From the NCBI GenBank assembly GCA_001724265.1, contig MEDY01000005.1, positions 1 to 64,000 of the forward strand: a stretch of 64,000 nucleotides of DNA, given 5' to 3'. The position numbers and the translations under genes were made by a program. The notes below the pieces were generated by a model, which saw only the letters and a list, made by a program, of their open reading frames with translations, had not been told where the DNA came from and ran no database searches. The stretch comes from Rhizaria sp. SCN 62-66 (taxonomy: Eukaryota). Below are positions 1 through 59,085 of the stretch, in pieces; within the stretch, counting starts at the first letter, position 1; each line of letters starts with the position of its first letter.

Positions 1-98
1 CCACCCTTATATGGCCGCGGGGAATTGATGTTTGGTGGTGTTTGCCCCAGTGTGAGCCTGTGAGACTTGGTGTTTTATGCAGAATGTCGGTTGTGACA
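1..98. repeat. Copy 1 of a dispersed direct repeat (partner at 6308..6410); possible transposon/LTR edge
   Basis: 34..70 is identical over 37 bp to 6341..6377 (GGTGGTGTTTGCCCCAGTGTGAGCCTGTGAGACTTGG). 83..98 matches 6395..6410 with 1 mismatch. Similarity stops after TGT(G/A)ACA. Confidence 0.75.
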
Positions 99-695: not shown

Positions 696-3254
696 ATGCA
701 GCACGGTCCAGCGTTGCCAGATGGACCTCCAGTAGCCCACGCTCTACACACTTCTTCTGCGACCTCTGCGTCACTCCATCCTCTATCATCCACTTCGCCG
801 CTGTTTTCAGCACACATGTCCGGTGACAGATTATACGAGACACCTTGCAACACCGTGCCTAGTGCCATATACGATGATGATTCGTCGTTTTCCTACGCGG
901 ATCGGCGGTGTCAGTTTCTGCCCCGTCCCCTCCCGCGGTCGTCAGTCATCCAAGTACAGGCTGTGGCAGCCCGCGCTCGCTACCTTGCGCAGCACACTGC
1001 TATGAACGGCATCACACGTTTTTCAGGAGCAGTATCCGCACGTTCTCACACATCTGGCAGCCCTTGCAGTGTCAATGCCAACAGCGCTGTAACTCATAAC
1101 GGGAGTGCTAGTGCCCGGACGCCCAACGAGCGCGAGCGCGCGCGCGCTGCCGCCGAGTCCGAGTCTATCGCGGCCGCTCTGGCAGCGCGCTCGATGCGCC
1201 TGCAGCCCGAATTTATTCGAGTCAGCAGCAACAACAACAACGCTCCCGTGATCACAACAAGGAGCAGCGACCGTGCACACAGTAAGAATGCTCACGCGGT
1301 ACGGCAGCCACGACAGCGCTTTGCGACCAGCAACCCCACCCCTCCCGCCGCAGCCACCACCGCAAGCACGGGTGGCTTTAGCCCCGCCGCTGCAGCTGCG
1401 AGCGCGGCCGCGGGCGCGAATGCAGGGATCGGCGCGAGCGCAGGCGTCTGCGGCGGCGGCTGGGTCGCTGGAGTCGCGCCCGTGACCGGCACTGGTGCGG
1501 TCATCCCCCCGCTCACAGGCAGCTGGACCTTCACGAGCGCGCACAGCGGCACCGCTAACGCGCAGAACCAGCCCAGCAGTGACAACAGTCACTCTGCGAG
1601 TATGCAGAGCCATACGCAGAGTCATCGGCAGCGTGCGTTTTACGCGCATCCACTCGACGGCCGCGTGAATGTGATGCGTCCTGACCCTCACACGTTTGAT
1701 AACACGACAAACAACAGCAATACTGTGAACACAACCACGAGCAGCGCGAGTGCGCGGACTCTCACACACGGAAGCACGGCTCACAGCCGTTCGTCTCGCT
1801 CTCGGATCGACCGCGCGGCAACTGCCGTCGGCCACTGGGTGGACAAGACGCTGACGCAGGCGAGCCAGGATGCCGCTGCGCAGAAACATCAGCAACTGCA
1901 GCATCAAGAACAGATGCAACAGCAGCAAACTGCAAGTGCAGCAGCTCAGTTGCCTCCCCCAGTTGCACTGCTGCCCCCACTGCCTTCAAGCTTCGCAACG
2001 TCTCTCGCTGCGCCTGGTACGCTAATATGATATTACTCCACATAATTTCGGCTTGGATCTTATGTATTTTGTGCGTCCTTACATATTGCTCCTATAATTG
2101 TTTCTTTGTGCATCATCTTGGTTTCTGCAGGCCATAAGCCTTTACTGCCGTCCGCGGCCGCCGCCGCGACAACCGCGGCCGCTGCCGGCCCCAGCGCGCC
2201 CCCAAGCGGCAGCGGGACTGAGGCCGCCACGGGCGAGTGGGCTCTGGCACAGGCGCTGAGGCAGAAGATTCTCCCGTGGCACAAGTACGAACAGAAAGCA
2301 AATGCGCAAGAACAGGACAACCACCATGAGAAGATGCAGTCCTACGGCGCTGTCGCTCAGTATGAACAGCATCAACAGCTCGATCATGTGCAAGTTGAAG
2401 GCCGCGGTCATGCGTCAGGACATGTTTCTTCTGCTCATGCTGCAGATTGTTGCCACAACACTATTGCAGGAGATGTTGTCCCTGCTCCCGCTAATCCCGA
2501 GACTGATCTCACTACTCCTGGCACTGGCACTAACATCGACACCGGGAACACAAACACAAAGAACATCGACGGATCTGAGAACAACAGCATCCATGCTCAC
2601 ACGTCTAGTTCTCGCGAATCAAACACAACTCGTGTCGCCACTCAGCGTCTCGAACATGATCCCACCCGATTCCTCTCTGCTGCCGCCGCTGCAGTTGCCA
2701 ACAACTCGTCCTCTTTGACGCAGCTCCACCACGACTGCGCTGCAGGCAATCGAGCGAACGCGGCCGCAATTGTCGCCGCGAACGCGCACTCACCGTGCCA
2801 CCGCGGCGACAGCCACTGCAGCACCGCGGCCGCCGCTGCCAGTGTGCCTGCGCCCGCGGCGTCTGCGAACAGGAGCACGCGCAGTGGCCGCGGTCCTAGC
2901 CAGCAGGGCGCTCATGGAGACTTTGAGACAGATCATGCCAAGAACAACAATGTCGCGCTTATGGGCAGTGCTGAGAGCTGGGGGTGGAGTAATGGAGCTA
3001 CTCGCGACAACGTGAATGTTACTATTGCAGCTGATACAGCTGCTTTAGATGTGCAAGATCTGCCCAATATGCATGCTCCTGGCCAATCTGCTGACACGGT
3101 GGTCCACGGCCAGCTCGAGGGCGGTCAGTCGAACAGCAACAGCCGCAGCCAACTCAGCGACTGCGGACAAGGCGACTGTGGACACTTAGACTGCGCTATT
3201 TGTGGGCGTGCACACCACTACAACACGATCGCACAACTGCATTAGCATCAACAT

Positions 3255-3296
<42 letters not shown>

Positions 3297-5924
3297 CAAC
3301 AGTCTATGCTCTAGCAACAAGAACAAGGCCCGCCAACATTTGGGACGTTTAGCATTGCAATTCAGTGTGATTGTGGCTTTGACAGTCGTGATAATAACGC
3401 TCAAGGTGGGCACTTGAATAACCAAGACGGCCACTCGCATGAATGTGCCCTGAACCCCGTCTATTTCCAACCACACAGCAACGCTTCTCAGTTGGTTGCC
3501 GATCACCACCCTATTGACGCAAGTGCTCACGGCCACTTGGTTGACAGCGCAGAGCAGCAAGGCGCGTCGCGCTCCGCTGCGATCGCGGCCATCATTGCCC
3601 GCGAAGCTGCTGCCGCCACGGCGTTGCAGCCGCTCAGTGTGGCGAACCCCGACTTGTACCAGTTGCCGCACTGTAATGAGTCCCTTAGTCATTCCCAGAG
3701 ACTGCAATCCACCACGGCGAACTCGTGCTTCGACAAGTCTCACACAAACGAGTCTGGTATTGTCGACACCAGCCCCAGTCGGGCCGCGAATGCTGCTGCG
3801 AGCAGCGATATCTGCGGTTTGTGCAACTCGTACTGCCACGGCCTCTGCCGCGGCCGGCGCCCTGCCGCCACCGCGGCGGTCTCTCTCGGCACCCACTGCT
3901 ACACCGGTACTGACTCCGCGTCAAGTGGCGCCGACAACGCTGCGTCCAACAACGACGTGGACGACTCCGTGCTCGCTCCCGCTGACCCCGCGGTGGCGAC
4001 TGCGCTCACTCAGCAGCACACGGCTCTGGCGCGGCGCCGCCTCGGGCCCGGCTGGGGCCGCGCGCCCCCCGCGCCCGCCGCGCCCCCGCAACCGTCCTGC
4101 GGCAGCGGCAACGGCAACGCCAGCAGCAAGAGCAACACGCAAGGGGCCCCTGAGCCATGTCTCGGCACAAGCGCCGTCCGCCTCACCACCCCGATCAACC
4201 GGAATCCCAGCGCCTCCTCCGGCGCGGCCGAGGCGAAGCGGTACGGTGCGGTGCTGGGCCGCGCGCCGGTGTGGGCGCGCTCGGCGCTGCCGGGAGCGGG
4301 GCCAGGCGCGCACGGGGTCATGTACGTTCCGCTGAGCCGGGAAGGCAAGGAAAAGGTGCTGGGCGAGCAGCAGCAGCGGCGCGAGTGGCATGAGCACTGC
4401 GTGCAGCAGCAGCGGGAACAGCAGTACTTGCAATACCAGCAGTTCCAGCAAAGTCAACACATGGGGATGAGTACAAACAGCATGGGCAAGCATGAACACG
4501 CGCAGTCGGCACATGTCGTGCCTCCTCCTGCTGTGTCGTCTGACTTGTTTACTGTCAGTGTTCATGATCCCAAGGCCGTGATGCCGCATTCAACGCTCGA
4601 CGCAAGTGGCCGCGGTCCAAGCGATTGCGCGCTCGGATTGCCCCCGATGCCGCTGCCACAGTGCGCGTCTGCCGCGAGTCTCGGGGCTCACAGTCAGACG
4701 GCCTGCAGCCGCAGTCGCGCGACGAGCCACATGAACAACTCGACTGCGACTCTTGTCGATCCTGTTTTGAATGACGCTTCTCGTGCAACTGCTAGCCTTG
4801 TTCGCAGTCAGTCTGTGTCCGCTGGCGCGAATGATACCCGTGAGTTAGCTGCCAGAAGTAATGACGCTGTTTCCGCGCCTGATGAGATACATGTAACAGA
4901 GGCTGTTCCTGAAACGGTTGCTGTCGTCAACGACTTCTCCGCTGTGGATTCACGTGATCCGGCTGGCTCACACAGCAATGACAGAAGCGCGTTTGTTCCT
5001 CAGGACAACGGTGTGTCGGTTCAACAAGAGACTGATGAGCATATGCAGCACTCAACACTCACATTGCATCATTTATCGTCATTGCCACATTCACAATTGC
5101 CGCATGGGAGCACAAGTCATGAACCCCCTCGCTACTTTCAGCAGTTGCCACCTCAGCAGCAGCCTCAGTACACAGTTGCTAACTATGCGGGCGGTCAAAG
5201 CAACCAATACCACGATACATCGCAGCCAAGTCAGCAGTCCCAGTTCGCGAAGTCATTTAACTCAGTAGGCGCTGCCGCTTCACTCCGCACTCCCCCGCCG
5301 TCCTCTGGCGATGTGAGTACCCCCTTAGCTTCCGCACCAACGTCCTCGCTGGCGTTCCGTGCGTGGCTGCAGAGCCGGCGCAGCCCGGGCCTCAGGGCCG
5401 ACGGGCTTGTTAGGGAAGCACTGGCCGAAGGGCGGGTGCGGCTCAACTATACCAGCACCGCCGCCACCAATGCCTCGATCGGGACCCCAACTGAGACTAG
5501 CCATGGATCTGTTAGTCGTGCCGAGAGTGGTTTGCCTGGTTACATCCTGCCGCGCACCGCAACGCGGCACAACGCACGCCTCTCGGCAGACGTGGTTGCG
5601 ATCCCGGTTGCTGATGTCGGGTCGCGGCCGCTATCGCGCTCACGGTCACCGATGCAGCTGAGTCAAAGCAATCAACGGAGTGACAATCAGAACCATCGCC
5701 ATGATCAGCAAGTACAGCATCAGGCCTCATTGCAGGACAGCCAACAGTTCCTGTCGGCTCGTTTTGAAACCTGGGCGAGCGAGCATCGCCATCTTAACAA
5801 CGCTGTTGTGGGAGATCCTGTGGACAGTGCTGCTGCAGCGTTGGCGAATATGACGGAGCAACAAGTTGCAGCGGTGCTAGCACGGGCAGCAATGATGCGT
5901 GGTCAACAACAGTAGCATCTGTAA
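696..5924 (+). CDS. Low-complexity Gln/His/Ala/Asn/Ser-rich protein of unknown function (~1,704 aa); join(696..2016,2131..5924); 3 in-frame TAG read as Gln (3243, 3312, 5913)
   Basis: Intron 2017..2130 (GTACGC...CTGCAG, phase 1) joins ORF 696..2030 to ORF 2106..3245. ORFs 2106..3245 and 3414..5915 are in the same frame and separated only by TAG 3243-3245 and TAG 3312-3314 around a CAG/CAA run. After TAG 5913 the frame ends at TAA 5922-5924. Confidence 0.65.
3246..3302 (+). repeat. CAG/CAA trinucleotide run (poly-Gln) bracketed by in-frame TAG codons
   Basis: CAT TAG CAT CAA CAT CAA (CAG)10 (CAA)4 CAG TCT ATG CTC TAG CAA CAA. Confidence 0.9.
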
Positions 5925-6131
5925 CGTGGGCATTTTGGGTATGAGGAGAACGACTGATTCGCACGGAGTAAACGCACATCATTCTCGTCACCCGCTTCAG
6001 AAGCAATTGTCATTGCCTACCAGGGAAAACTGCTCTATTAATATGGCTGGCCAAGCTGGCGTGACAATCCAATTGTTACCGCCGACATTCTGCATTAAAT
6101 GCCAATCGACCGCATTTGCCGCCCGCGATTT

Positions 6132-6315
6132 AAAGGTGGCGTTTCTTGTGAACACACACTTCGTTTTCCTGTGAACACAGACTCTCTTTTTCCTATGAAA
6201 ACAATAAGAACTAAGTATATAATTCGAATTATATGTTGTGTCTCTGATATTATAAATTGTTATTGTTGTTTTCACAGAAAAGAGAAGTCTGTGTTCACAG
6301 GAAAACGCCACCTTT
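6132..6315. mobile_element. Foldback/MITE-like inverted-repeat element (~184 bp)
   Basis: Left arm AAAGGTGGCGTTTCTTGTGAACACACACTTC... is the near-perfect reverse complement of right arm ...GAAGTCTGTGTTCACAGGAAAACGCCACCTTT. The left arm carries tandem TGTGAACACA sub-repeats and the AT-rich centre holds the palindrome ATATAATTCGAATTATAT. No clear target-site duplication. Confidence 0.55.
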
Positions 6316-6410
6316 CTTTACCCGCCCCGAAACGACCGTGGGTGGTGTTTGCCCCAGTGTGAGCCTGTGAGACTTGGCATTTTATTAATATCTAAATGTC
6401 GGTTGTAACA
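6308..6410. repeat. Copy 2 of the dispersed direct repeat (partner at 1..98)
   Basis: Same 37-bp core and AATGTCGGTTGT(A/G)ACA terminus. CCACC lies 33 nt upstream of the core in both copies. Confidence 0.75.
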
Positions 6411-6883
6411 CCAATACAATACAAGGACCATTCAATTTTCAACTTTTGTTCGCCCACTACTCAGTCGATGGATCGGTGTTCTTGTGATCGAAAAGAAGGG
6501 TGGGTTGGAATGAATCTGGGAGAATTTCGGAAGTGAGCGACTTGTTGAAGAAGTCAAGCATAGTATTATCTAAAACTTCCGCGTGAGTTTTGGAGAATTT
6601 GCGCTCTATAATCGATGATTCAAGGGTATAGTTTGGGAAATAATAATTCACGATAGCATAATATTTTGTGCACCGATGTACACTTCGATTCTGTGCTCTA
6701 TATTGTGGTTCGTTTGCTTGCGGGCGCCTTAAGTCCGCCCGTCAACATTGGTGTGTACATTTTGCGGCAAGTAGCACTCGAGGCGACATTCGCACAATTT
6801 ATTCTACCCATGTTTGTTTTGTATGTTTGATTTGTCTTTTATTTTGCGTTTTTATAGCTTATCTCATCTCAACGTCTACGCAC

Positions 6884-8920
6884 ATGCGCAGCTCGCGAGC
6901 CAGGCCTCGCGGCGATCCTGTTGGCAATGCTTCCAACCGCATCGCGGCAATGAACTCAGCTCAACCCACCAACCTTATTGCGACCAACGCTTCTGGTTTT
7001 AACACAGCGGCATCCCGGACGGCTCAGACCACAGAGCCATCACTCGCTCAGGCATGTGCCACCCCTAGCTTGCCGCGCACCGCTGCCGCAGCTGCTACTG
7101 CTGCTGCCGCAGCTGCTACAGCTGCTGCAGAATTTGATCGTCCGACAGTTAAGCGCCCCCGTTTGCTGCAGGGCACAGTAATTGTTGCCGCTACATCTGA
7201 CACTGCGACCGCGGGCGTTGCTGCTGTGTCCACAGACGCTGCAGCTATTGCTGCTGCCGCGGCGGCGGTGGCGGTGGCGAGCTCACCTGCTGCGCCCGTC
7301 ACCGCGCCTGGCCTATCCCCCCTCAGATTTGCTGCTCCAGCAGTCGCGATACCAAAGGGAGCTAAGACAACCAAGTCGCGTGCCACTGCCGCTGCTGCAG
7401 CGGCAGCGGCGGAGGCGGAGGCGGCGGCGAAGGCGGCGAAGGCGGCGGCGGAGGCGGCGGACGCTGCACCTAAGCCATGCGCCGCGCCTGACGCTGCACC
7501 TGGCCTGTTCCCCCTCAGTCTTGCTGCTCCAGCAGTCGCAAGGGCCAAGGCAGCTAAGCCGCGTGTCACTGCAGCTTTGACACTCGTCCCTGCTTTTCAA
7601 GGATTCGCCACTGCTCACCCATCGTCACCTGCTTCGTTATCGTCCCCGGCTGCTCTCGCGTCTCCCAGTGCATTCAGGCCCCCAGCTCAGTCTTTGGCCT
7701 CACCAACGGCCCCCGGCGTACGCATGTTTCCAGGTATGTACTTGCCCACTTCTGCGCTCACCACTGCTTCGAGCGTTCACGCTTCACCTGTTGTTCACAC
7801 TCCTGTTGATGCTAGTGTGGACCACGTGAGCTCTGCGAGTGCCGCCGTCGGATACTCGGATGATGATATGGATTCTGCGAGTGATGTCTCACGCAACACG
7901 CTGCAAACCATGTCTGGTCTTCCGGGTCCCATAGTTTCGACATTGCGCCATAAGACAGTCGTGCTCAATGCCGTCATCGCCGAACGTCTTAGGATGTTAA
8001 TCGGCCAACTGAAGCGCTTTCTTTCGGCGTATCAATCCGACAAGACCGCCAACAGCAACGCGTTTACCTCGTTTATGAACGAGCACCGTGACAACATTTC
8101 AACATACGACCTCGATGTCACTAAACTCAGCACCACATGTAAGTGGGACTCCACGATGCCGGCCGTACTCGGGTTTCTTGCAGGTCTGAACAAGTATCGG
8201 TATAACGATTCGGAGGTCTACAAGCTTGTCTCTTGCTATCTTCTCATTCATATTGGCATTGTTGTCCAACCTGAAGCTGTGAAGGCGAAGCTCAGGGAGG
8301 AGCGGCTCCGCTACACTGGCGCACTGCTTCTCTGCTTTGACAGCAACTACATCAAGCGCACCGGCGTTAACATCGATCTAGACGTTCCATATGGGCAATC
8401 AATTGATCCAGATCTTGTCAATAATGTCCTTGTTGAGACTGCAGGTAAGACGATAAATGGCGTTAACGCTACGGCTGCAATTCATTTTGTTGCTGCCAAT
8501 AATAAGCTGTTGCCCATCCCCCACTTCCACCTGTTCCACTCTGTGACGCAGTTTGGCTCTCATGATTTTAACAGGTTGAACATGGAGTCTGCCGGTGGGG
8601 CGTTATACATGGAGTTCGAACCCAACAGCTCCGATGCCAAAGCACAGGAGACTCTCCGTCGTGGTATGTTTGCTCAGACTGACGAACAGATTAGCGACCT
8701 CCGCCGCATCAAGGAGTTGGAAGTCAAGCTTGCTGCCGAGATTGAGAAAAACAACGCTCTTTCGAGCGAAGTCTCTGGGATGAAAGCATCAGTTGATAAG
8801 ATTCTTGAAGAGTTTGGGATCATGAAGAAGGCTAGTGCTGAGCAAGAAAAGACCCTGGTCAAGCTACTCCGCACATTCAGTGGCGAGACCGCGAACCCCC
8901 AAAATGCAACCCAACCTTGA
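6884..8920 (+). CDS. Hypothetical protein (~678 aa): Ala/Pro-rich N-half, globular-looking C-half with terminal coiled coil
   Basis: Intronless ORF with likely ATG at 6884 (in frame with ORF 6668..8920) and TGA stop. Heptad-like C-terminus (DLRRIKELEVKLAAEIEKNNALSSEV). No family recognised. Confidence 0.6.
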   Translation: MRSSRARPRGDPVGNASNRIAAMNSAQPTNLIATNASGFNTAASRTAQTTEPSLAQACATPSLPRTAAAAATAAAAAATAAAEFDRPTVKRPRLLQGTVIVAATSDTATAGVAAVSTDAAAIAAAAAAVAVASSPAAPVTAPGLSPLRFAAPAVAIPKGAKTTKSRATAAAAAAAAEAEAAAKAAKAAAEAADAAPKPCAAPDAAPGLFPLSLAAPAVARAKAAKPRVTAALTLVPAFQGFATAHPSSPASLSSPAALASPSAFRPPAQSLASPTAPGVRMFPGMYLPTSALTTASSVHASPVVHTPVDASVDHVSSASAAVGYSDDDMDSASDVSRNTLQTMSGLPGPIVSTLRHKTVVLNAVIAERLRMLIGQLKRFLSAYQSDKTANSNAFTSFMNEHRDNISTYDLDVTKLSTTCKWDSTMPAVLGFLAGLNKYRYNDSEVYKLVSCYLLIHIGIVVQPEAVKAKLREERLRYTGALLLCFDSNYIKRTGVNIDLDVPYGQSIDPDLVNNVLVETAGKTINGVNATAAIHFVAANNKLLPIPHFHLFHSVTQFGSHDFNRLNMESAGGALYMEFEPNSSDAKAQETLRRGMFAQTDEQISDLRRIKELEVKLAAEIEKNNALSSEVSGMKASVDKILEEFGIMKKASAEQEKTLVKLLRTFSGETANPQNATQP

Positions 8921-9101
8921 GGGGTGTGCGTGTGTGGTTTATATTTTAGTCACAGCATGTATTATTGAGCAAATATCGCACTTGAACATGCGAAAAAAAG
9001 CAAATAGTCGCACAAAAGACACACAGTCAAACAACATAAATTATATACCTTATCACAGTCCGTTCCAATTCCTATCTCAGTTAAGATCCCAGAGTTACTT
9101 C

Positions 9102-10684
9102 TTACTGGTCCCCGCCGAAGCGCGAGCGGTAGAAGTCGTAGCCGGCCTTGCCGACTGCGCCGGCGGCGAGACCCGCGGCGACGGCAAAGAGCCCGTTGCC
9201 GAGCGAGTCGAGGCTGGTGATGGCTTCGACCTGCTGCACCATGTAGTCGCGCGGCGTCTGTGGGACGAGAATCTCCTTGTGCACGAGCGTCATGCCGCCG
9301 TCGTCCGAGAGCGCGATGGTGCCGCGCAGAAACACAGGCAGCCCCAGCGGCACGCCCGCCTCGGTCTTCTGCAGCCCGACCACCCGCGGCGCCACGGGGG
9401 CCGCGGGCGCGGGCGCGGCCGAAGAGGAGCCCGAGCCAGTGTTTACGACTACCACGGTCGACGGAGCGGCGGCGGCCGCGCCGCCCCCGTTGTTAGCCGT
9501 AGCGGCGTGCTGTGTGACGGCCATGGTGGGGATGAAGAAGTTTGCGGGCACGTTGTGCGGGGGCACCTCGACCCACACGCCGCCGGCCTTCTTCTCGATT
9601 GGGTCCATCGGGCTAAGGAGGCGAATGACCACAGGGGAGACAAGTGTGACGATGATTGTTCGGACTGATACTGAAGACGTGATTGGGTCATTGGTATTGA
9701 TCTCAACGTAAAATTCATTTAATTGGACAATCAACAAGTTGTTTAAGAAATTGCCAACACTTGTGCTGTCGTATACCGCGATGTGTGATGGGTACGTACC
9801 GAGCGTCGGCGGGGTCGGCCCAGAACATGGGCTCGAGGAGCTCCTCAGGCGTCTGGCGCTTGCCGAAGATGGCGTCGCGGACCGAGGGAACGGCGTTGAG
9901 GAAAAAGCCACGGTTGTGCTCGTCGTCCTCCTGCTTGTTCTAAAATTATATCAACAAGAAGCAACATACGCGCAACATACGCAAATAAATGATGTGAAGG
10001 CGGATGTCAAACCAAAGGCAAATATGAATCACATGAAGACTATATACATAAACCCACGATGTCCAACGATGCAGAGTGTTTGATGATGGTGTGCGTTTGT
10101 CAGCGTACCTGGTAGTCCTCGTTGATGAGCTGTGCAACCTCGATGATGTTGAACTTGGCGCGGATGGCGGCGCGGCGCTGCAACTCGGCCTCGTCGATTT
10201 CGCCCTGGCCGTCCTGCGTCAGGCCCGTGCGGTAAAAGCTCGACGCGTCGATGAGCCCCAGCATGCGGCCACTGGTGACGGAGGAGAGCACGTTCTCGCG
10301 CTGCACGCGCTGCTGCGTCACGACCTCGGAGGTTTTGCCGTCGGGGCCCTGCTTGGTCTCCTTGATCACGTTCGTCTCCTCAATGATCTCCTTCTCCTCG
10401 GAGCGTAGCAACGCGTAATGCACGGGGCGACCGGCCTCCTTATCCTCGCGCGTCACCAGAGCGTTGCGGGGCGCCCATGCGTAGCCGAAGAGGTTCACCT
10501 TAATCGTGGGCTCTTGACCAGACTCGCGGAGAGAGCGGAGAATCTCGTGCGTCTCCCTCATCTGAATAACAGGGTCGTTGGCAATCTCAGTAATGCGTTC
10601 AGTCTCTGACGCGACGGAACGCTTGGTGAGATAACCAAGACCGCCGAAAACGGCGGAGCCGACTGCGAACGCAGAGGCAAGCAT
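9102..10684 (-). CDS. GIDE-domain-like two-TM membrane protein (MUL1/SP1-like architecture, no RING); join(10109..10684,9800..9939,9102..9612), ~408 aa
   Basis: Two GTACG...TAG introns with matching phases (0 and 2). N-terminal hydrophobic segment (AFAVGSAVFGGLGYL). VVGLQKTEAGVPLGLPVFLRGTIALSDDGGMTL resembles the GIDE C-terminal block and is followed by a second hydrophobic segment. TAA stop. Confidence 0.55.
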
Positions 10685-11347
10685 GAAACTATGGTAAGGG
10701 CAAACGGGGTTTCGAGAGAGCGAGTATTCACAACCTGTTAGCACAGACATGGTACATATTAATGAAGACGTAAACGTATGCACAGACTACTCCAAGAATA
10801 TGTTAGAAACAGACATCTTAACGATCGAATTGATGACTTCCATTCATTTCGCGCAAGAGCCACAGCTGGCCCCTGAGGTCACCACAAACCGCTGGCAATG
10901 GTGGCCGAGGACCACTGGTGTGAACCTGTGGTATCTGTAGAGTATCAATGAGTTGTTTCCTATGCGTGAACAGGAATAAATCCCGCGACATTAAACGACA
11001 GGTCATTTGAAAAGTGAAATTGCTGTTTGAAATATGGTGCTAATGTATCATTTTGCGAACTCGCTCACAGTACACCCGTGCCTTTCATTCTTAGAACTTC
11101 GCTTATGTGTATTGTTATTTGAGTGCTATTACGACGATAGCTGAAAGTTGGCATTCTACTGTACATCAGGTACATCAAAAAAATTATACAAAACAAAAAA
11201 TAGAGTTGGACCTCGACGTAAGCATCATCACAAACGACACCAAGGACACACCACGTTACTCAGCAGATCCGCGCTCAGTCAAACTCGGTGACGCGCCAGT
11301 GTCTGTCCTCGCGGGTATATTCGGAATGTGCCGTCTCTGATCAGTGC

Positions 11348-13174
11348 TTACGCGCGGCGGCTGCGGCTCTGGCCGCGGCCCTGGCCCTGCTGCTGCTGCT
11401 GTTGCTGCTGCTGGGGGCGGCCGCGGGAAGACGAGCGCTCGCGACGCTGGCCCTGCTGCTGCTGCTGCTGGGCCTGCTGGCCGCGGCCGCCGCGGGCCGG
11501 GGACTGGCCGCGAGCGGGCGACTGCCCACGCTGGCGCTACTGCTGCTGCTGCTGCTGGGGCTGGGGCTGGCCGCGGCCGCGGGACTGGCTGCGGGCCGCG
11601 GCGGGCGCGCTGTCGTTGTCGCGCGCGCGGGCGCCGAAGACGCCGCCGGCGGGCGCAGCCTGCTTGGGCGGCTGCTGCTGCTGCTTGCCGCCGCGGCCGC
11701 GAGAGGACGAGCGGTCACGGGCGCCACTGTTGGTGTTGGCGTTGGCGTTGGCGTTACCGCGGGCGCGGGAGAGCGAGCGCGAGGGCGAAGGCGAGCGCGA
11801 CTGCGCCTGAGGTGCGGTGCGGCGCGCCTTGGCGAGCATCTCGCTCCGGTTCTGCGCGCCGCGACGCGCGCCCGCGGCCGCGCGCTGGAGGGCGCCCTGC
11901 TTGAGCGCGGCAGCGGCGGCGCCAGACTTGCCGCGGGCAGTGGCGGCCGCGGCGGCAGAGGCGACCTTGCGGGACACCGACGCGTCGCGCGCACGCGAGG
12001 TCGAGCGCGAGCGCGAGCGGCTGGGAGAGCGGTCGGCGCTGCTGCTGCCGGCGTTGGCGTTGGCGGGGACGCGGGAGCGGCCGCGGGTCGACTGCGGCTG
12101 CTGCTGGTTCTGCTGCTGCTGCTGCTGGGGCGCGCGGCTGCGGCCGCGGCCCTGGGCCTGCTGCTGCTGCTGGTTCTGCTGCTGCTTCTTGGCGGGGGCC
12201 TTCTGGCCCTGCTGCTGCTTCTGCTGCTGCTGGCTCTGCGCCGAGCGCGGGTTGGAGCGCTGGGTCACGCCGCCGTTGCGGCGCGCGTTGCCGCCGGCGT
12301 TGCCGCCCTTGGCAGAAGCGCCGCCCTTGGCGCTGTTGTTGGCGCTCACGTTGCCCTTCTTCTGGTTGTTCTGGTTCTGGTTCTGGTTCTGGTTCTGACG
12401 GCCGCCCTGGTTCTGGCCCTTCTTGTTGGCGCCAGCCTTGTTGCTCTAAGGTGTAATGCAGAGAAGCGACGAGGTGATGGCAGTCAGGCATAACAAGAGA
12501 GTGCGACAAACGTGTGCGATTGCGATTGGGACACAAAAAGTGGAGATTCGAGGGGAGTGATGGATGTAAGATGTGTCCATGTGTGTTGGATCAGTGTCAT
12601 GCAAGGATGATCGCGCTTGCAAATGTCGCTGTGTTCGTTGTGTGTCGGGTACGCCTTCGTTTGCGTTTGTGGCGTCGCTGTCGTGTCTATGTTGCCTGGA
12701 CACACACACAGTCTCGTGTAGGTTTAATAGATCTGCAGAGATGTGGCTCATAGAGATGAAACAGCACACCCGCGGTACATCACTCATTACACAAGAGAGG
12801 ATGAGGGCAGAACCACACCGAAACTGTGTGCTTGTGGCGAGAACGACTGTCCTACGGCCGAGACAGTCCTGATGGATGTGCAGCTCAGCGCATATCGAGC
12901 GGGATCTGACAGGCAAAACGAAAACGGATTGCAAAGAAAGTGCCACGTCGCAAAAGAGCAGACAGTAGGTAATACCAGACAGAATGTGGCGCAACACAAC
13001 GAGATCGTGGATACCACGAAATCGTGTGTCGAACCAGAGACGGTTTCGTCCAAGAAGAAGTGGGCGCGAAAAGAGATTATTTAGGATTGAATTTCACGAG
13101 TGATAGAAAGGACGTACGCGCTCAGCATTAACAATGTCACTCAGACTGACATCAAGCATTGACTGAAAACTCAT
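11348..13174 (-). CDS. UAP56-binding-motif (UBM) Arg/Ser/Gln/Gly-rich protein, ALY/REF- or UIF-like mRNA export adaptor candidate; join(13118..13174,11348..12445), ~384 aa, one in-frame TAG (11537..11539) as Gln
   Basis: Exon 1 encodes MSFQSMLDVSLSDIVNAER (compare UBM consensus LDMSLDDII), followed by a GTACGT donor and a TAG acceptor at 12446-12448 (phase 0). After the QQQQQQ-TAG the same RG/Q/S composition continues for 62 codons (RQRGQSPARGQSPARGGRGQQAQQQQ...) to TAA at 11348-11350. Confidence 0.65.
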
Positions 13175-13793
13175 GTTGATCTTGTCCACGTGGGTTTAGC
13201 TTCGCACCAACCACCTTCTCAAAATCCCTTATCTCGCCTTCGAGCCTCCGAGCGATTCGTGGTCGAGGACATCCTCCCAGCAACAGACCAGCGAGCGAGA
13301 AGTTAGGCCGGTTTTTGACACAGCGCCGGGCGAGACCGGGACAACTTTGAGCCAGACCGAACAGGACGAGTTTCTCTGGCTCAACACCGAGGAAGTAATG
13401 CAATTTTCAACTATAATGCACTTCGCGATGTGGCATATTTTGAATTTTGAAATTGTTGCAACTATAACTCAGTTTTTGACCTGAAACACAGTTTGCAAAG
13501 TGGCCATACCGTTGCCGTTAGAGCACACCGCAAACTCGTTACTTCCCTTTGCGGCGCTTTTCTCAGCAACTATGCAGTAGAGCCTTTATATATTCGTGTT
13601 CCCGGGGATTCATTCAACTACGCGGTGTTGTTATATCACGTTCGATAGTGTGTTGTGTTTCTCAAATTTTCATTTTCCGCAACTCGGTCGCTGTCAACTG
13701 CTCTTTTTGCCATTCGCGATTTTCGGCGTTTTACTCAACTATCCTCATCTTCTACGTTACTGCACGGACCTTCTGCTGATCACTCCTAGGCCG

Positions 13794-15581
13794 ATGTCGT
13801 CCCGCCGCTCGTCCTCGCGCGCCCGCGCGAGCACCAGCAGCAGCACCAAGGCCCCCGCCGCTGCTGCGACCCCCGCCCGCGGCCGTTCCCGCTCCCGCTC
13901 CACCTCCCGCGCCCCCGCCTCGTCCCGTGCCAAGTCTTCCGGCCGCTCCTCCGCCGCCAAGAAGTCTTCCTCGTCCAAGTCGAGCAAGGCCGACGCGTCT
14001 CCCGAGCGCCCCGCCCCGACGCCCAAGCGCGCCGTGCGCACCCGCTCGCGCTCCGCCGTCCGCGCCCCCGTGCTTACCGTCGAGGACGACACCAAGCCCG
14101 CCGAGCCCAAGGCTGCTGAGCCCGCCGCTGACGGCGTGCGCTCGCGTCGTTCTCTGCGCGTGGCCCGCGCCGCCGGCGAGGCCGACGCCGCCGAGGTCGC
14201 GCAGTTCGAGGCCTCCGTGGCCGCCGCGACTGGCAGCAAGCGCGTGGTGGAGCCCGAGCCGTACCAGTTCGGCGGCCCCCTGGGCGCGCTGGGCATCTTC
14301 GTCTTCTCGCACTTCATCGTGATGTACTTCTTTGCGTGCCTCAACCACAACGGCGGCGCGCTGCTGCTGCCGCAGTCGCTCTCCCAGGTCGCCATCGTGG
14401 CCTGGGCCAAGACCTTCTGGAGCATCCTCGCTACGCACGCTGCGCCGACCATGTGGGCCTTCAAGGCTTTCTGGATCTTCCAGATCACCCAGGCCATCCT
14501 CGCCGTCATCCTTCCGGGCGTCACCATCTTCGGCCTCCCCGTGCCTTCCGAGGGCGGCAAGCGCCTCAAGTACCACTGCAACGCTCTGTCGACGTGGTAC
14601 GTCACGCTCGCGGCCTTCTGGGCCATGAACCACTACGGCGTGTTCCGTCTGTCGTCGATCATCGACAACATTGGCCCGCTCGCCACTGTCGCCATGTTCT
14701 CCTCGGACGCCATTGCCGTCGCCATCCACGTCGCGGCCTACATCAAGGGCACCGTCGCCGAGGACCGCTCCGGCAACGTCTTCTACGACTTCTTCATGGG
14801 CGTGTGGCTTAACCCGCGCATCGGTGCGCTCGACCTCAAGATGTGGGCCGAGGTCCGCGTGTCGTGGATCATGCTCTTCCTCATCACCGCCTCGGCGGCC
14901 GCGAAGCAGTACGAGACCTACGGCGTCATCTCCCCCGCCATGGGCCTCATCCTGCTCGCGCACGGGCTCTACTCCAACGCCATCATGAAGGGCGAGGACT
15001 GCATCCCCACGACCTGGGACATCTTCCACGAGAAGTGGGGCTGGATGCTCATCTTCTGGAACCTCTGCGGCGTCCCCTTCGTCTACACCACGCAGTCCAT
15101 CTTCCTCGTCCAAAAGACCCCCCAGTTCGTGCAGTATCCCACCGCCGTCTGGGTCTTCCTTTACATCGCGATCATCGTGCTCTACTACATCTGGGACACG
15201 TGCAACAGCCAGAAGAACCGCTTCCGCATGGTGCTCAACGGCTCCTACGTGCCGCGTCCCTTCGCCTTCCCGCAGCTGCCTTGGGGCACGCTCAAGGACC
15301 CCAAGTTCCTGACCACCAAGGCGGGCACTCCGCTGCTCGTCGACGGCTGGTACCGCTTTGCGCGCAAGTTCCACTACACCGTCGACATCACCATGGCGCT
15401 CGTGTGGGGCCTCTCGTGCGGCACGTCGCACTTCCTGCCGTTCTTCTACGTCTTCTTCTTCACCGGCTTCCTCTATTCGCGCGTCATCCGCGACGAGGCC
15501 CGCTGCGCCGTTAAGTACGGCGCCGACTGGGACACCTACGTCGCCCAGGTGCCCTACCGCTTCATCCCCGGCGTCTACTAA
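13794..15581 (+). CDS. ERG4: Delta24(24(1))-sterol reductase (ERG4/ERG24 family, ERG4-type) with N-terminal RS-rich extension
   Basis: Motifs YQFGGPLG, FYDFFMGVWLNPRIG, DLKMWAEVR, YSNAIMKGEDCIPTTWDIFHEKWGWMLIFWN, FPQLPWG, LLVDGWYRFARKFHYT and RDEARCAVKYGADW...VPYRFIPGVY. Multiple TM segments, strong GC3 bias, TAA stop. Confidence 0.9.
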   Translation: MSSRRSSSRARASTSSSTKAPAAAATPARGRSRSRSTSRAPASSRAKSSGRSSAAKKSSSSKSSKADASPERPAPTPKRAVRTRSRSAVRAPVLTVEDDTKPAEPKAAEPAADGVRSRRSLRVARAAGEADAAEVAQFEASVAAATGSKRVVEPEPYQFGGPLGALGIFVFSHFIVMYFFACLNHNGGALLLPQSLSQVAIVAWAKTFWSILATHAAPTMWAFKAFWIFQITQAILAVILPGVTIFGLPVPSEGGKRLKYHCNALSTWYVTLAAFWAMNHYGVFRLSSIIDNIGPLATVAMFSSDAIAVAIHVAAYIKGTVAEDRSGNVFYDFFMGVWLNPRIGALDLKMWAEVRVSWIMLFLITASAAAKQYETYGVISPAMGLILLAHGLYSNAIMKGEDCIPTTWDIFHEKWGWMLIFWNLCGVPFVYTTQSIFLVQKTPQFVQYPTAVWVFLYIAIIVLYYIWDTCNSQKNRFRMVLNGSYVPRPFAFPQLPWGTLKDPKFLTTKAGTPLLVDGWYRFARKFHYTVDITMALVWGLSCGTSHFLPFFYVFFFTGFLYSRVIRDEARCAVKYGADWDTYVAQVPYRFIPGVY

Positions 15582-16332
15582 GCGAAACGCTGTCGTTAAA
15601 TCGATCGGAAGGGGTGCGCTAGAGAATGACGTGGCGACGACCAGCAACTGGCTATGTAATGACTTCAGAGGACTCTTACGTATTAAATTTATGCGTGTGT
15701 TAAAGAAAGAGATACTGTAAAGAGATTGTGATGTTTCTCTTTGTTTTGTTTCTGCAAGTATTTAGTTTTACCTTTCCAACAAACACACCAAGAATGCGAT
15801 GTTCATGGTGTATTTTTTTTCTTGAACGAGTCAAAGTAACATAATTGATCACGCGTCATGCCTTGTATGTTTTACATTTAGAACTACGCTTGACACTTGA
15901 GAAGTTCCTCATGTATTGAGTGGTCGCTCCATCGTCTGTGAACGTACTGTTGTCGCATCGCATGTCCTGTTGTCTTGCGTCTTGTCTGCTTCGTTGCTCG
16001 TTCTTGCTCTCTACAGAGTTTTAAGTTCGAGTGATGTCGTCGGTGACGTAATAACGATGCTGTTGTTCTTCATATTTTATACACTAGTAATTTTATCACA
16101 CTTCGGAGTAACTCCTTCAGCACAAACCTCCATAAATCATCACTCTTTTTTTCACTCTTTTTTTCATGTTTTGCCAAGGACTGAAGTGAGATCTACATTT
16201 GAGAAGATATTCATGAACTGTGTATTATTTTATCATAATCAATTGATTTTAATTTTAAAAATTGTCAATCTATATTATTTATCATTGTTTACTCATGATG
16301 GCTTCAGCAGGAGGCTTCTTATCAAACAGTCC

Positions 16333-19300
16333 TTACACACCCATCCCGAGGACGTCGTGCAGGGCATCACTACCAACCCCTTTGGCCTGGACAAACTTGG
16401 CATATTTTGACGCCAACGCAACCGCCTCTCCCGTTTCCGACCCGCCCATTCGCGCCATCCACTCTACGCACCCCGGCTTAACTTTGTGCCGCTGCAGCAA
16501 CGTAGTGAAGAGCGCGAACTGGAAGTGTGCAGACCGCTCACTTGCAGACATGCCAACTCCCCACGTGCCGTTGTCGCTCTCGCCCTCGGCCTCAACCCCC
16601 TGCTCATCACTGTCTGCATCGGCGACTGCAGCGGCAGCTCGCACCAGCCCGACTGCGACAGCGACCGCGGCCACGGGGGACGTCGCCGCGGTAGCCAGCA
16701 GCCGCTTCCGCTCGCTCTTCGCGCTCGCTGACGCGGACGCGGTCTGATTTTGCGCATCGGCGGCGGCCTGACTTCCGGTGCCCCATAGCGCAAGCAGTGG
16801 CGCGAGCGAGGAGTCTAGCGCGCGCCAGAGGCGGACGGCAAGGCGCTTGTCTTTGGGGGCCAGTCCGGGGTAGCTCGCCGTCGTCACACCCTTGTTGAAC
16901 GTGTTCACGTAGACCGAGCAGTTGCTCTCAGCGCTGGGGCACGGGTCGGGGTCGCAGGTGGCGAGCGTGGCGGGCACCGAGTGGAGCACGCTCACGAGCG
17001 ACTGCGATATGAACGAGAGCAGGGACGGGAGAACAAGACTGTGGGCGACAGGCACCGTCACGCCCGCGGCGCTCTTGCTCTTACTCACGCCGTGCGTGCC
17101 GCCGCTCGCGGTGGAGACGGTGGAGGCAGCCGGGCTCTGGGTGAAGGCAACCGCAGCGGGCACCATTGAGCGCAGCTTCGCAGCCGCACTCATCCCCTCT
17201 GCCTCATGGTCCATGGGGTTTACACTCACGCCGTCCAAGAGAGTCGCCTGCAGCGGCTGCGTGTTGGCGAAGCCGCCCGGCCGAAGCGCCGAGAGCGCGC
17301 CCTTGAGCACGGCAGGAATGACCTCGGTGGCGAGCAGGGTCGCAAAGGCCAGGTGCATCGGCGAGCCGGGAATGAGGAGCGCGGAGATGACGGCGTAGGA
17401 AACTTCGGGGGACTCGGTCAGCGGCTGCTTGGCAGCGCTCGCACTCAGGCCGAAGGCAGACGTGTGGGTGGCTCGCTTTTGGCGAGAGGCCTTCGTCCTG
17501 GTCTTAGCAGCGCGAGTGGTAGGGTCGAGGGGCATAACCTTGCGACTGGACATGCTCTTGCGCTGCGCCACTTGTGACTGAGCAGGCTTGAGCTGAGTGA
17601 CTTGAGGTTTGACAGCGGTGCTAGAGTTCATTGTGTTGAAATGGCTGCTGTTTGTGGGAGCAAACATTGCTGACAGAGTTGTCTTAGTCACCGCAACTGT
17701 CTTCTTGTTGGCAAACACAGAAGCAAGGTCTTCGTCATCGTCGTCCTCTCCCTTGGCACCGGGACTAGTCGTGGGCAGGGATTCGTTGTCGTCACCATCG
17801 TTGGTATGCTCAAATGGGTTGGTACTAATGTTGGCTTGGTCAGCGTCGTCGTTGTCGTCGTCGTCAAAGGGGTTGGTTCGAGCGCTCTCTTGATTTTGGG
17901 TGCGACGGTCAGCCCTCGACGCAGGAAGAGTGTCAAACGGATTCGTGCTCTGTCCGTACAAGCTCGTGCTGGCGTCCGCATTCGCGTTTGTGTCACCAGC
18001 CACATGGGACGCTTCATTGTCGTTCTCGAAAGGATTACTGCTCGTGGTCATAGCCTCAGGGATAGCGATAGCATCAGCTTCAGGCTCAGGCTCCGACTCA
18101 TAATCTGACTCGTACCCATCCTCACTGTCAGAGTCCGACTCGGAATCCGAGCCAGAATCAGAGTCGGAGTCGTTGTTTGTGAGAACAGTCGAGTACCCGC
18201 ACAGAGCGTAGCGCAGGCCCTTAGAGAGCAGCTCAACACTCGCTCTCACAGCGACCCTGTCGGCCTCTTCGTCGTCACTTTCACTCTCGCCATCGCCATC
18301 AGCAGCACTGTGACTCGCGTTCGTGGTTGCGCCCGTGTTAGTGTTCGAGGTCGTGCGGGTGATGCCATAGAACGCCAAGAGATCTTCAGCCTCTGCAGCA
18401 GCTGCAGCAGCGGCCTCTGCTGCCTCAGCAGCCTTAGCCTCGGCCTCGGCTTGCGCCTCCGCGCTTAAGCCCTTCGACTTGCCGTGAGAGGGTACCACAG
18501 ACAGGAGGGGTTGAACCTGAGTCACACCACTCGCACCATGCTGCTGCTGACGCATCGTTAGGAGCTGCTGCTTGCGTTGCTTGCGCTGCAGCTGCTTCTG
18601 CTGGAGCTTCAGCAACTTCTTGCCAACAACGCGCACCCACCAGGCGCTGACGGCCGTGAGGCGTGGCAACAGCAACATGGCCATGGTCGAGAGACTGTGA
18701 GCAACACAGGTACCGAGGCGAGAGGCCAACAAGTCAAGTCGTACCAGACGGGCGTCGCGGCCGACGTAAGGGGCGGAGAAAGTCAGGCCGCCCTTAGCTG
18801 AGGAAGGTGCCACACCATTGCTCAATTCGACGTTGTTATGATTCTTGACAATGTCCTTCGTGACGCAGCAGGCGCAGCAGTAGTCGCGCTCGACAACACT
18901 CTCAGCATCCGCTGTGACACCAGAGTCGCCCGCATTGATAGAGTCAGCGTAGTACAATGTGTTCGAGTTGCGCGGCAAAAGCCCGCCTTCAACAGCCTCC
19001 CGGTGAGTGCCACGGCTTGCCAGAGCACTCAGCAGCTCACACGCATTTGCCTTGTTGCTGCTGTTGCTGCACGCACTAGACGAAACACTGCATTTATGCT
19101 GTGTGTAAGTATTGAGATAGTGCGCCATAGCACCCGTGCTGCTCGCACCCGTGCTCGCGATCGTGGTGCTACCGCTGTTGGTCACAGTGCCAGCATCTGA
19201 TAGCTGCGAGTAGCCGACGGGGTTGACAAAGGCGTTGTTGAACGCGTTTACACTCACAATACTGCTGCTTCCGTTGCTGACAATCGCCGCAAGCTCGCTG

Positions 19301-44281: not shown

Positions 44282-45933
<1,652 letters not shown>

Positions 45934-46395: not shown

Positions 46396-48912
46396 ATGAT
46401 GCAACAGGGCGCCTTCCTGCCGTCGGTATGCCTCGTTGCCATCGTCAAGAACGAGGAAACCAACCCCGCTGGTGGCATCGTCGACTACCTCGACTCGATC
46501 CTGCCGTTCGTCCCCTTCGCCGTCATCGTCGACACCGGCAGCACCGACGGCACGCTAGCCCTGCTGCGCCAGGCCGCGGCTGAGCGGTACCCCTGGCTGC
46601 GTGTGCGCCAGTGCGCCTTCTCCGACTTCGCCACGGCGCGCAACCGCAGCCTGGCACTCGCGCGCGCGGCCGTGCGCGAGGCCGGGGTGGCCGTGGGCAC
46701 GGCGCTGGTGCTGGACGCCGACGAGCGGCTCACGCCGGCCGGGCTGATGCGCCTGCGCTCGGCGCTGCTCGGCTCGGTGACTCAGGGCACAGCGGCGCTG
46801 CAGCCGCTGCAAACTCGAGAAGAGCCAGCGCAGCAGCCACAGGACAGTATGCAGCAAGAGCATGTGGGAGTGTGTGTCAAGTTTGCGATCACAAACGTGC
46901 TGAGTGGCGGCGTGCCGTCAAGCCGGCAAAACGCGGGGTTGATGAACCCTCGCGTCTTTCCGCTCTTTGCGCCCATCAAAGAAAGCGCATGCTGTAACGA
47001 ATCAACCAGAACTGGCAACACGTGCAGCAGTGAAAACGCAAACGATACCAACACCACTGACAATGCTGACGACGCTGAACGTGGGCAGCAGCAGTCGTGT
47101 GTAGATCTCGGCGTTGGCCATGACGCGTACTCCGGCTACCGATTCGAAAACATGGTCCAAGAGAAGCGGTTTGAGAGGCTGATGTATCAAGGAGACTCAA
47201 TCAGCAAGGCTGCTTACGTTGACCTTGCCAGTATGCCCGTAGAGTCACTTCAGCAGACATCCAAGCGCGAGTCAGAAGCTTCACTGAATGAGACTGAAGT
47301 GTTGCAAGCAGTCAGTGAGTACTGCAACAGGCATAAGTTCAGCCCCTTAATTGTCAAGACACTGACGCACATGATCACCTCTCCGCTCTACGCATCAGCA
47401 GCGCCCCTCCACTTCGACGTCAAGGACTGTGAAACCTGTGACACGGCTACAGTCACCTTCTCCAGCCCGCACCTGAGCGCCCCGGCGCACTGCGCGCCTG
47501 GCGTCAGGCCCTGGGAGGTGCACTTCCTCCACTTCGTACCCAACAACAAGTCGCGCGTTGCCAAGTCGGTCGCGTACAAGGGCGCCGATGCCGCGGCCGC
47601 TGAGCGCGCCGTCGTGGCCGCCGCCAGCGACAGGGCCAATGGCGGCCGGATCGCGGCCAAGCGCGTGCAGTGGGCGGTGCTGCGGCAGGTTCAGCGGGTC
47701 GCCAAGCTGCTGGCCGCCGAAGTCAAGCCGCCTGCTGCCGTGATGCCGACTGCGGTCGTGCTGAAGGCCGCTGCCGGGGCGACGAGGCCGGAAGCAGGCG
47801 ACCACCACAAGCTGCAGCGCGGACTTGGCAGGGGGTCGTTGTTAGCGGCATTTCCTGTGCGGTTAACCGATGCTAGCAGCACCCCCAGCACGTCTACTGA
47901 CACGCAGTCGTGCTCACAGCCGGTTGAGGGCTCTGTGCTAGCATGGGTTGATGATATTGCGCTCTTGGCTATTCTGTCGGAATCGGTTCACATCGACAAC
48001 AGCGCAGAAAACAACGCGAATGGCAATATCAGCATTGAGTACTACGATGTGAATGGTGGCAAACATGTTTCAGGCTATATCACAACGATGATTACGACTG
48101 GTATTAACGGCGCAATCAACTTGATCCGTCAGCAACAAAAGCAACAAGGACAGCTACCGTTGCGTCAGCTGGCTTCACTTGGCCTGATTTCTCGCATCGT
48201 CGTTTGTCAAAAGTCGTTGGACAATATGCACCAGGGAGGTGAGCAGGCGACTTGTGCTGACTGCAAGAACCTATACTCTAGCTCGAAATTTTTATCACCA
48301 ATGTCCATAGTTCCAGAGGCCGTTCAGTGGCCTGCTGCCACCTACGCTACAGAGTCTGCTGTTAATGCGCTTACGTCACGTGGAAGTGCCCAAAGCTAGA
48401 CGCAAGCTCACATGGCAGCATATTGCGTCGCGAGCTATGCAGGTCTGCGGTCTCCCAACGACAAGACGGCCAGTAACACGCATAGCTACGAGTGTCAGAT
48501 TGTCGTTTGTCCCGCGTTACTCAAGGAATGGGGAATGAAGCGTGCAACTCAAGCCTGGAAAGCGGCTTGGGGCGCGGCTAAAGCTCCAACAAGCACGGCC
48601 AAGCTGGAGAACAGTGAATCTCAACTTAGCAAGGACACTGTCATAGTTCAGGACGGTGATTCAACTGTTGTGGGTCCAAACAGCGACCTCCGCGCACAAT
48701 TCCGCTTTTCATCCCCATTGCAACAGCTGCAGCAACAGCTTCCATCAGGCTCGGCGACGAGTGCTGCTTCTCAGAGTGTGAGTGCAAACGTATCTGCTGG
48801 TAATGCAGCCGGCCTTGCTGTGTGTGTACTGAAGCCCTCACTGAGCAACGTCACAGCAAGCTTCTTCGCCACACTCACTGCCGACGGCCATGTGTGGCTC
48901 ACGGATATGTAA
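46396..48912 (+). CDS. Glycosyltransferase family 2-like protein with long C-terminal extension; one in-frame TAG (48397..48399) as Gln
   Basis: GT2 motifs SVCLVAIVKNEE, IVDTGSTDGT, DFATARNRSL and LVLDADERL. ORF 46291..48399 (TAG) and ORF 48412..48912 (TAA) are in frame and separated only by ACG CAA GCT CAC. An upstream exon cannot be excluded. Confidence 0.7.

Positions 48913-59052: not shown

Positions 59053-59085
<33 letters not shown>

Follow-up and report, generated by a model that had tools for sequence, protein, structure and literature searches.

On the minus strand of contig MEDY01000005.1 (Rhizaria sp. SCN 62-66, assembly GCA_001724265.1), of which positions 1 to 64,000 were analysed and are called here the window, a gene for a glutamine-rich repeat protein carries an in-frame TAG at 11539-11537, directly behind a run of six CAG codons. 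The same frame continues for 62 further sense codons to a TAA at 11350-11348. Taking into account the stop codons of the other genes in the window, it is probable that this organism decodes UAG as an amino acid, most likely glutamine, in the manner of NCBI genetic code table 15, and the gene most likely ends at the TAA. TAG codons are named below by the position of their first base, and the features discussed are collected in Table 1.

The gene around TAG 11539

The first-pass annotation of this DNA had described a TAG at the end of a poly-Gln run followed by 62 codons of the same repeat protein, with the motif RSSSRGR and an equal bias in GC content at the third codon position (GC3) on both sides of the TAG, and with a fall in GC content only behind the TAA. 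All of this is confirmed. The motif occurs as DRSSSRGRGG before TAG 11539 and as ERSSSRGRPQ after it, GC3 is 0.94 before and 0.92 after, and the GC content of the flanking 150 nucleotides (nt) is 0.81/0.79 at the TAG vs 0.81/0.53 at the TAA. The codon choice is continuous as well: CGC accounts for 33 of 38 arginine codons before the TAG and 12 of 14 after it, GGC for 32 of 33 and 9 of 10 glycine codons, and CAG for 56 of 56 and 22 of 23 glutamine codons. By codon position, the GC content is 0.89/0.61/0.92 in the tail and 0.73/0.61/0.93 in the whole gene.

The openness of the frame is in itself no proof of coding, since in all six frames of this GC-rich window 51 stops are flanked on both sides by at least 55 open codons (one at least 150), and four frames, three minus and one plus, are open over the target gene. 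The GC content by codon position is more telling. It peaks at position 3 in the minus frame that contains the TAG, and at position 1 or 2 in the other two minus frames and in a 423-codon plus-strand open reading frame (ORF) over the gene, which marks the former as the coding frame; on the same grounds, readings that place the gene in a different frame or on the plus strand were rejected. Scans of all stops by codon score and by GC3 were too noisy, because the antisense frames of GC3-rich genes mimic coding sequence.

The gene consists of degenerate 66-nt modules, each with an Arg/Gly/Ser patch and a Gln run. Seven copies are present, 60-76% alike, of which two lie after TAG 11539 and one across it, and all spacings are multiples of 3. 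No frame-breaking indel occurs in the tail, though the modules have diverged by a quarter to a third. Given this divergence and these spacings, the tail shows no frame decay and is no fresh duplicate, and recent duplication was rejected as the source of its coding appearance. The retained codon choice, together with the lack of frame-breaking indels, indicates that the tail is translated now or was translated until very recently, and site 11539 alone fits either.

The gene had also been credited with a recognisable motif. The motif does recur, but it is only the gene's own repeat: the target protein has no Pfam family at E<=10, and in the Atlas it has no usable feature match and only structure rows with a template-modelling score (TM) of at most 0.28. 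The protein is 22% Gln, of low complexity and predicted to be disordered (Atlas model with a predicted local distance difference test score, pLDDT, of 0.41). In a protein search, 0 of 8000 scored candidates reached E<=0.001, the low-complexity sequence having swamped the word index, and the exact 28-mer adjoining TAG 11539 had no match in metagenome_contigs. No orthologue of the target gene bearing on TAG 11539 was found in the protein search or among the loci obtained with the ERG4/ERG24 gene described below, of which L002 was examined.

At its 5' end the large exon has no in-frame ATG, and the sequence ...ccttag at 12448-12446, directly before it, is read as its 3' splice site. The donor at 13117 is the only GTAYG donor upstream of the large exon with an in-phase ATG-initiated ORF before it, and the exon at 13174-13118 and the 672-nt intron 1 are tentatively taken as the 5' part of the gene. 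The putative exon 1 peptide contains MLDVSLSDIV and then SNKAG, a pattern (LDxSLxDI) presumably similar to the N-terminal motif by which export adaptors of the Yra1/ALYREF type bind UAP56. We take the UAP56-motif mRNA export adaptors (ALYREF/Yra1, UIF, CHTOP) to share a short N-terminal UAP56-binding helix and Arg-rich unstructured regions, with an RRM in ALYREF/Yra1. The exon 1 peptide gave no PDB match, and the target protein contains no RRM or other Pfam family. Export adaptors with this motif are described as having little in common beyond it (PMC5095910).

Stop codons across the window

The census of stop codons comprises 16 gene models with 17,451 codons, 670 of them for Gln, a small sample from one contig. 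Five in-frame stops occur, spread over three genes, and every one is a TAG (3243, 3312 and 5913 in one gene, 11539, and 48397), with no TAA and no TGA. The terminal stops of the same 16 genes are nine TAA and seven TGA, and none is a clean TAG. Each of the 15 TAA or TGA terminators that were measured shows a GC drop of 0.07-0.32 and is followed by 1-50 open codons. At TAG 11539 and TAG 48397 the GC content changes by -0.02 and +0.03, and 62 and 170 open codons follow, respectively, before a TAA and AT-rich sequence. In the gene at 2046-5924, TAG 3243 is followed by 22 open codons, TAG 3312 and then 866 codons, so that ORFs of 399 and 866 codons are connected through the two TAGs in the same frame; in the translation as read, the first ATG of the second ORF lies about 290 codons in.

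Five introns are fixed by domain continuity. They are 128-214 nt long, start with GTATGT or GTACG(C/T/A), end in CAG or TAG, and have GC contents of 0.34-0.48, four of them lying at 0.34-0.39 and the KRR1 intron at 0.48. None of the five in-frame TAGs has a GTAYG donor nearby, and their local GC content of 0.47-0.81 is above that of four of the five confirmed introns. Rejected as in-frame stops were TAGs 45391 and 12448, which are intron acceptors, and TAG 55169-55167, which lies inside a 155-nt AT-rich GTACGA...CAG intron; in the latter gene, at 55-57 kb, the exon phases agree and the second exon (55092-54691) ends in TAA.

TAG 48397 is a stronger single case than TAG 11539. It lies in the gene at 46288-48912, which has a weak glycosyltransferase-2 Pfam match (hereafter the GT2-like gene) and a homologue, P0005 (846 aa), that is 42% identical in the N-terminal domain and colinear at query residues 61-226, 284-301 and 410-481. 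Past the TAG, which is residue 704, query residues 801-873 match P0005 781-843 (BLASTP E 3e-4), and this is the extreme C-terminus of both proteins (...LTADGHVWLTDM in the GT2-like protein vs ...LTADGTVWLYDTPI in P0005). Aligned to P0005, the tail attains a Smith-Waterman score of 73, while shuffled tails score 35.9 +/- 5.1 with a maximum of 65, and none of 2000 reaches 73. As judged from this alignment, coding sequence runs across TAG 48397. The only donor-like site near this TAG is GTGAGC at 48239, and the corresponding 161-nt GTGAGC...TAG intron (48239-48399) was rejected: its removal would change the reading frame, which then runs into an early TAA, and the conserved C-terminus would be lost. 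Public gene calls, made with a standard-type code, split the gene into P0003, of 698 aa and ending at the TAG, and P0004, of 125 aa and inside the tail; standard-code callers thus split or truncate genes with an in-frame TAG. Truncation of this kind probably affects other genes of the organism in protein databases.

As regards the residue inserted, a Gln codon is found within two codons on either side of all five TAGs (P=0.001 for random placement within the same genes) and directly adjacent to three of them (P=0.034). Two TAGs abut runs of at least three Gln codons, and the next base (+4) is C at four of the five. The proximity of a Gln codon to every TAG points to Gln, which on this codon context is most likely the residue rather than another. 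The same context is expected from synonymous CAG>TAG changes in Gln-rich stretches and also from read-through in a Gln context.

Table 1. Positions of the stop codons, of the gene parts around them and of the neighbouring genes identified in the window.
Feature	Position	Strand	Remarks
In-frame TAG	11537..11539	-	directly after six CAG codons; +4 base C
62-codon tail, RQRGQSPARGQSPARGGRGQQAQQQQQQGQRRERSSSRGRPQQQQQQQQQGQGRGQSRSRRA	11351..11536	-	frame, codon bias and Q-run/RGR modules as in the upstream part
TAA, read as the true terminator	11348..11350	-	GC content drops from 0.81 before to 0.53 in the 150 nt after
Large exon before the TAG, 302 codons	11540..12445	-	GC3 0.94; directly after pyrimidine-rich ...ccttag acceptor
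Putative intron 1, 672 nt, GTACGT...TAG	12446..13117	-	predicted
Putative exon 1, MSFQSMLDVSLSDIVNAER	13118..13174	-	GC3 only 0.42; low confidence
In-frame TAG	3243..3245	+	gene 2046-5924; just before His/Gln-rich run
In-frame TAG	3312..3314	+	gene 2046-5924; just after the same Gln run
In-frame TAG, ambiguous (sense codon or terminator)	5913..5915	+	after CAA-CAA-CAG; two codons before TAA 5922-5924
In-frame TAG of the GT2-like gene	48397..48399	+	gene 46288-48912; GC 0.51 before, 0.54 after; 170 open codons, then TAA 48910
Tail of the GT2-like gene	48400..48909	+	last 73 residues align with C-terminus of P0005 (LTADGxVWLxD at both C-termini)
ERG4/ERG24 sterol reductase	13581-15581	+	Pfam
Mitochondrial carrier	38992-40638	+	Pfam
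Tryptophan 2,3-dioxygenase, four exons	41378-43713	+	Pfam
KRR1, two exons	44282-45933	-	Pfam
ENTH	58350-60590	-	Pfam

Sense codon, recent stop or leaky stop

In the proposed reading, TAG 11539 would be a sense codon, most likely for Gln, in the final exon of a gene whose product would be intrinsically disordered and rich in Gln, Arg, Ser and Gly, and translation would end at TAA 11350-11348. The organism, an uncultured, GC-rich, intron-poor eukaryote of bioreactor and wastewater metagenomes, would read UAG as sense and retain UAA and UGA as terminators. The TAGs may have arisen by synonymous CAG>TAG changes in Gln-rich stretches. Decoding would require a tRNA-Gln with anticodon CUA and, presumably, an eRF1 weakened in the recognition of UAG, neither of whose genes lies in the window. 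Of the first-pass equation of UAG with Gln, the translation of UAG gains support from the five TAGs against no TAA or TGA in the 16 models, the absence of a clean TAG end and the conserved C-terminus past TAG 48397, whereas Gln as its meaning comes only from the codon context.

Several observations weigh against this reading. No TAG aligns to a conserved Gln, and none lies in an alignable conserved column or block; likewise, among 84 TAG-containing read-through ORFs (of 140), none has the TAG inside a Pfam domain. TAG is rare, with five occurrences vs 670 Gln codons (about 1%), and the 7,245-codon ORF of the window has no TAG where 2.1 are expected, a deficit that is not significant (P=0.12). 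TAG 5913 stands two codons before TAA 5922, which for a rare sense codon would be a coincidence of an estimated few percent, and it looks like a real stop with a second stop nearby. In GC3-rich genes most single-base nonsense changes yield TAG, so that five TAGs out of five would be expected about a quarter of the time by our estimate, and the absence of in-frame TAA and TGA is for this reason only mild evidence. The window contains no tRNA genes, and eRF1 is absent among the Pfam families identified in it. The C-terminal homology of the GT2-like gene rests on one homologue: none of the other 149 fetched representatives matches the tail at E<0.1, in a local tail search that was run without P0001 and P0002 and in which the gene's own piece P0004 matches by identity, and searches with the C-terminal region of either the GT2-like gene or P0005 brought back nothing but the query.

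The relatives of the organism add a further point of this kind. A search based on the ERG4/ERG24 gene gave 25 loci, the best at 61-63% identity, and the nearest, from Joint Genome Institute (JGI) metagenomes (L001/L002 10001-11314), are 61% identical, on contigs 24.7 and 264.8 kb long. L002, the relative that was examined, has about 52% GC and giant intronless ORFs of 2,627 and 2,048 codons, and it shares no synteny with the window or the target gene. Its 2,627-codon ORF (509-8410, minus strand) terminates at a TAG that is followed by a further stop after 6 codons, which indicates that the trait, if real, is not shared at a distance of 61% ERG4/ERG24 identity.

Reads were also compared with the window. 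The stretch around TAG 11539 is found in runs labelled as bioreactor, wastewater and activated-sludge metagenomes, with all sampled words present in X1, which is possibly the run of origin, and a fraction of 0.84 in X2 and X3. Read contigs of runs X3, X4, X5 and X6 were mapped to window positions 1-20000 with the repeats at 3233-3306, 11354-11584 and 12356-12403 masked, a layout that informs on sites other than TAGs 11539, 3243 and 3312. Contigs from DNA reach to 11353, and that of the polyA-RNA library X6, in which DNA may be present, spans 11585-12355; base 11539 falls between them, which also counts against the proposed reading. The pieces of X3, 770-1724 bases long, show no differences from the window. 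Those of X4, from another study, show 2-15 differences per 1-2 kb piece (about 0.1-1% of positions), by which X4 is a slightly different, second strain.

It is unlikely, on balance, that the code is standard and that TAG 11539 is a real stop, be it the product of a very recent CAG>TAG change in the poly-Gln run, a segregating allele or a wrong consensus base, with the tail as formerly coding sequence that has not yet decayed. Such a change takes one transition, CAG runs offer many targets for it, and TAG is, by reasoning, the commonest nonsense outcome in GC3-rich genes. The loss of a low-complexity tail with predicted disorder (pLDDT 0.41) might be tolerated, and the TAG is in the last exon, where a premature stop is not expected to trigger exon-junction-dependent decay. 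In addition, the contigs of other runs break in the target repeat, and assembly is harder here than elsewhere. At this one site, a recent nonsense change, a polymorphism or a wrong base thus fits as well as a sense codon, and the description of TAG 11539 as the cleanest single-site evidence for UAG=Gln has to be given up. Across the window, however, the same explanation needs such defects in three of 16 genes at once, one of them removing a conserved C-terminus, while no gene has TAG as its clean terminator. The tail, moreover, is free of frame-breaking indels despite modules that are only 60-76% alike. In the Atlas, the target protein likewise stops at TAG 11539, and for the GT2-like gene the 698-aa product ending at TAG 48397 is known from 4 contigs; these records may not be independent of the sample of the window. 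A GT2-like form of read-through length was not found.

A leaky UAG has to be considered as well, and we regard it as distinctly unlikely. UAG would then still terminate, and near-cognate tRNA-Gln(CUG) would read through it in Gln-rich transcripts with C at +4, giving short and extended forms, so that TAGs are tolerated only where read-through is high. Yeast provides a precedent of Gln-inserting read-through in Gln-rich genes, as described in a preprint (PMC13192750). The context of the present TAGs agrees with it, with +4 C at four of five and a Gln codon within two codons at all five, and at 11539 itself with CAG at -1, C at +4 and 22% Gln in the protein; TAG 5913, with its TAA two codons on, likewise resembles a stop with a back-up. 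On the other hand, read-through of a few percent would leave little full-length GT2-like protein, whose gene has 5.9% Gln and A at +4, and a working UAG terminator should end some of the 16 genes cleanly, which it does in none of this small sample. It is highly improbable, finally, that splicing removes the TAG, that a frameshift bypasses it, or that the real gene is on the other strand. The organism does have spliceosomal introns, and the in-frame TAGs 45391 and 12448 are indeed acceptors. The 183 nt around 11539, however, have a GC content of 0.81, compared with 0.34-0.48 in the confirmed introns, and contain no GTATGT or GTACG donor. The GT...CAG pairs starting from the G before the TAG are 3k+1 long and leave the motif-bearing frame. 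Outside the TAG-bearing frame, on either strand, GC peaks at codon position 1 or 2 instead of 3.

Setting of the window and comparison with known systems

The window is eukaryotic by its Pfam families (Table 1), and it gave no Rfam match over its 64,000 nt. Matches of KRR1 in the Atlas did not resolve its taxonomic position. About a third of it (16333-38070, minus strand) is taken up by a single unbroken ORF, the one of 7,245 codons mentioned above, neither half of which has a Pfam family at E<=0.001. In the ERG4/ERG24 reductase, an N-terminal extension of about 150-220 residues (13790-14260, plus strand), rich in Arg and Ser (RSRSRS, SSSK), precedes the membrane domain and presumably resembles the RS region of lamin B receptor. 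Two ORFs on opposite strands (9102-9950, minus, and 9247-9711, plus), with GC3 values of 0.77 and 0.81, overlap in the interval that separates the genes at 6662-8920 and 10100-10786. A hairpin-forming inverted repeat with arms of 31-38 nt that are 84-87% complementary occupies 6133-6318, without an Rfam match. Read depth over this repeat is 50-100x that on either side in X3 (a DNA run) and X4 (library type unrecorded), and the repeat is also spanned by a polyA-RNA contig; it looks like a multi-copy element similar to a miniature inverted-repeat transposable element.

Nuclear codes that change UAG and keep UAA as a stop are rare; the literature consulted names Iotanema, the rhizarian exLh and some ciliates. 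If the translation of UAG as Gln is true, the organism of the window would be a further independent case, in a GC-rich free-living eukaryote of wastewater reactors, and its very low UAG usage would show how such a code change starts. Among the papers listed by a literature search, none is on a wastewater eukaryote with UAG reassignment. UAG as Gln with UAA and UGA as stops is reported for the fornicate Iotanema spirale (Panek et al. 2017, PMC5304391), and the name 'genetic code 15' is given to the change of TAG to Gln (PMC9523058). The present case is similar in that UAG is the only stop codon found in frame, UAA remains a terminator, the most frequent one with 9 of 16 genes, and Gln is the probable meaning. 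The predicted decoder, tRNA-Gln(CUA), would be one anticodon change away from tRNA-Gln(CUG); anticodon CUA is also that of the predicted decoders in Iotanema and exLh, in both of which eRF1 is reported to carry suggestive substitutions (PMC5304391). In contrast to Iotanema, the window is GC-rich and intron-poor and has genes of aerobic type (sterol reductase, mitochondrial carrier, tryptophan dioxygenase), as far as the genes of one contig tell. Unlike the UAG codes cited here, it combines very low UAG usage with one TAG close to a TAA.

For exLh, UAG is reported to mean Leu, with UAA as a stop and 384 in-frame UAGs in 71 genes (PMC5304391). The likeness lies in the reassignment of UAG alone, which is also described for several phyllopharyngean ciliates (PMC11687900). 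Compared with the dense in-frame UAGs of exLh, only five TAGs are present here in 17,451 codons, none of them in conserved domains, and they cluster with Gln codons and not with Leu codons. In yeast, according to the preprint of Leslie et al. (2026, PMC13192750), premature UAG and UAA in Gln-rich genes are read through at 2-8% with insertion of Gln, favoured by flanking Gln codons, total Gln content and C at +4. A stop among Gln codons, C at +4 and a Gln-rich transcript are common to both systems. The differences are that yeast read-through amounts to a few percent under the canonical code, in a genome with genes still ending in UAG, whereas here no gene has a clean TAG end and one TAG is in a gene that is not rich in Gln.

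Codes in which UAR (UAA and UAG) means Gln are reported for ciliates, hexamitin diplomonads and others (PMC5304391), and according to Swart et al. (2016, PMC4967479) a codon may, in context-dependent codes, serve both as sense and, towards the end of the mRNA, as a terminator. The window shares with these a stop that is probably read as Gln, and TAG 5913 would fit termination near the mRNA end; it differs from the UAR codes in that UAA is plainly a terminator. There is a small chance that the window records an early, ambiguous stage of a stop-to-Gln reassignment in a previously unsampled, GC-rich, intron-poor eukaryote. At such a stage UAG may be decoded as Gln and purged as a terminator, make up only about 1% of Gln codons and be restricted to the neighbourhood of Gln codons with C at +4, and close to the end of an mRNA, as at TAG 5913, it may even now act as a terminator; such an organism would be a natural 'ambiguous intermediate'.

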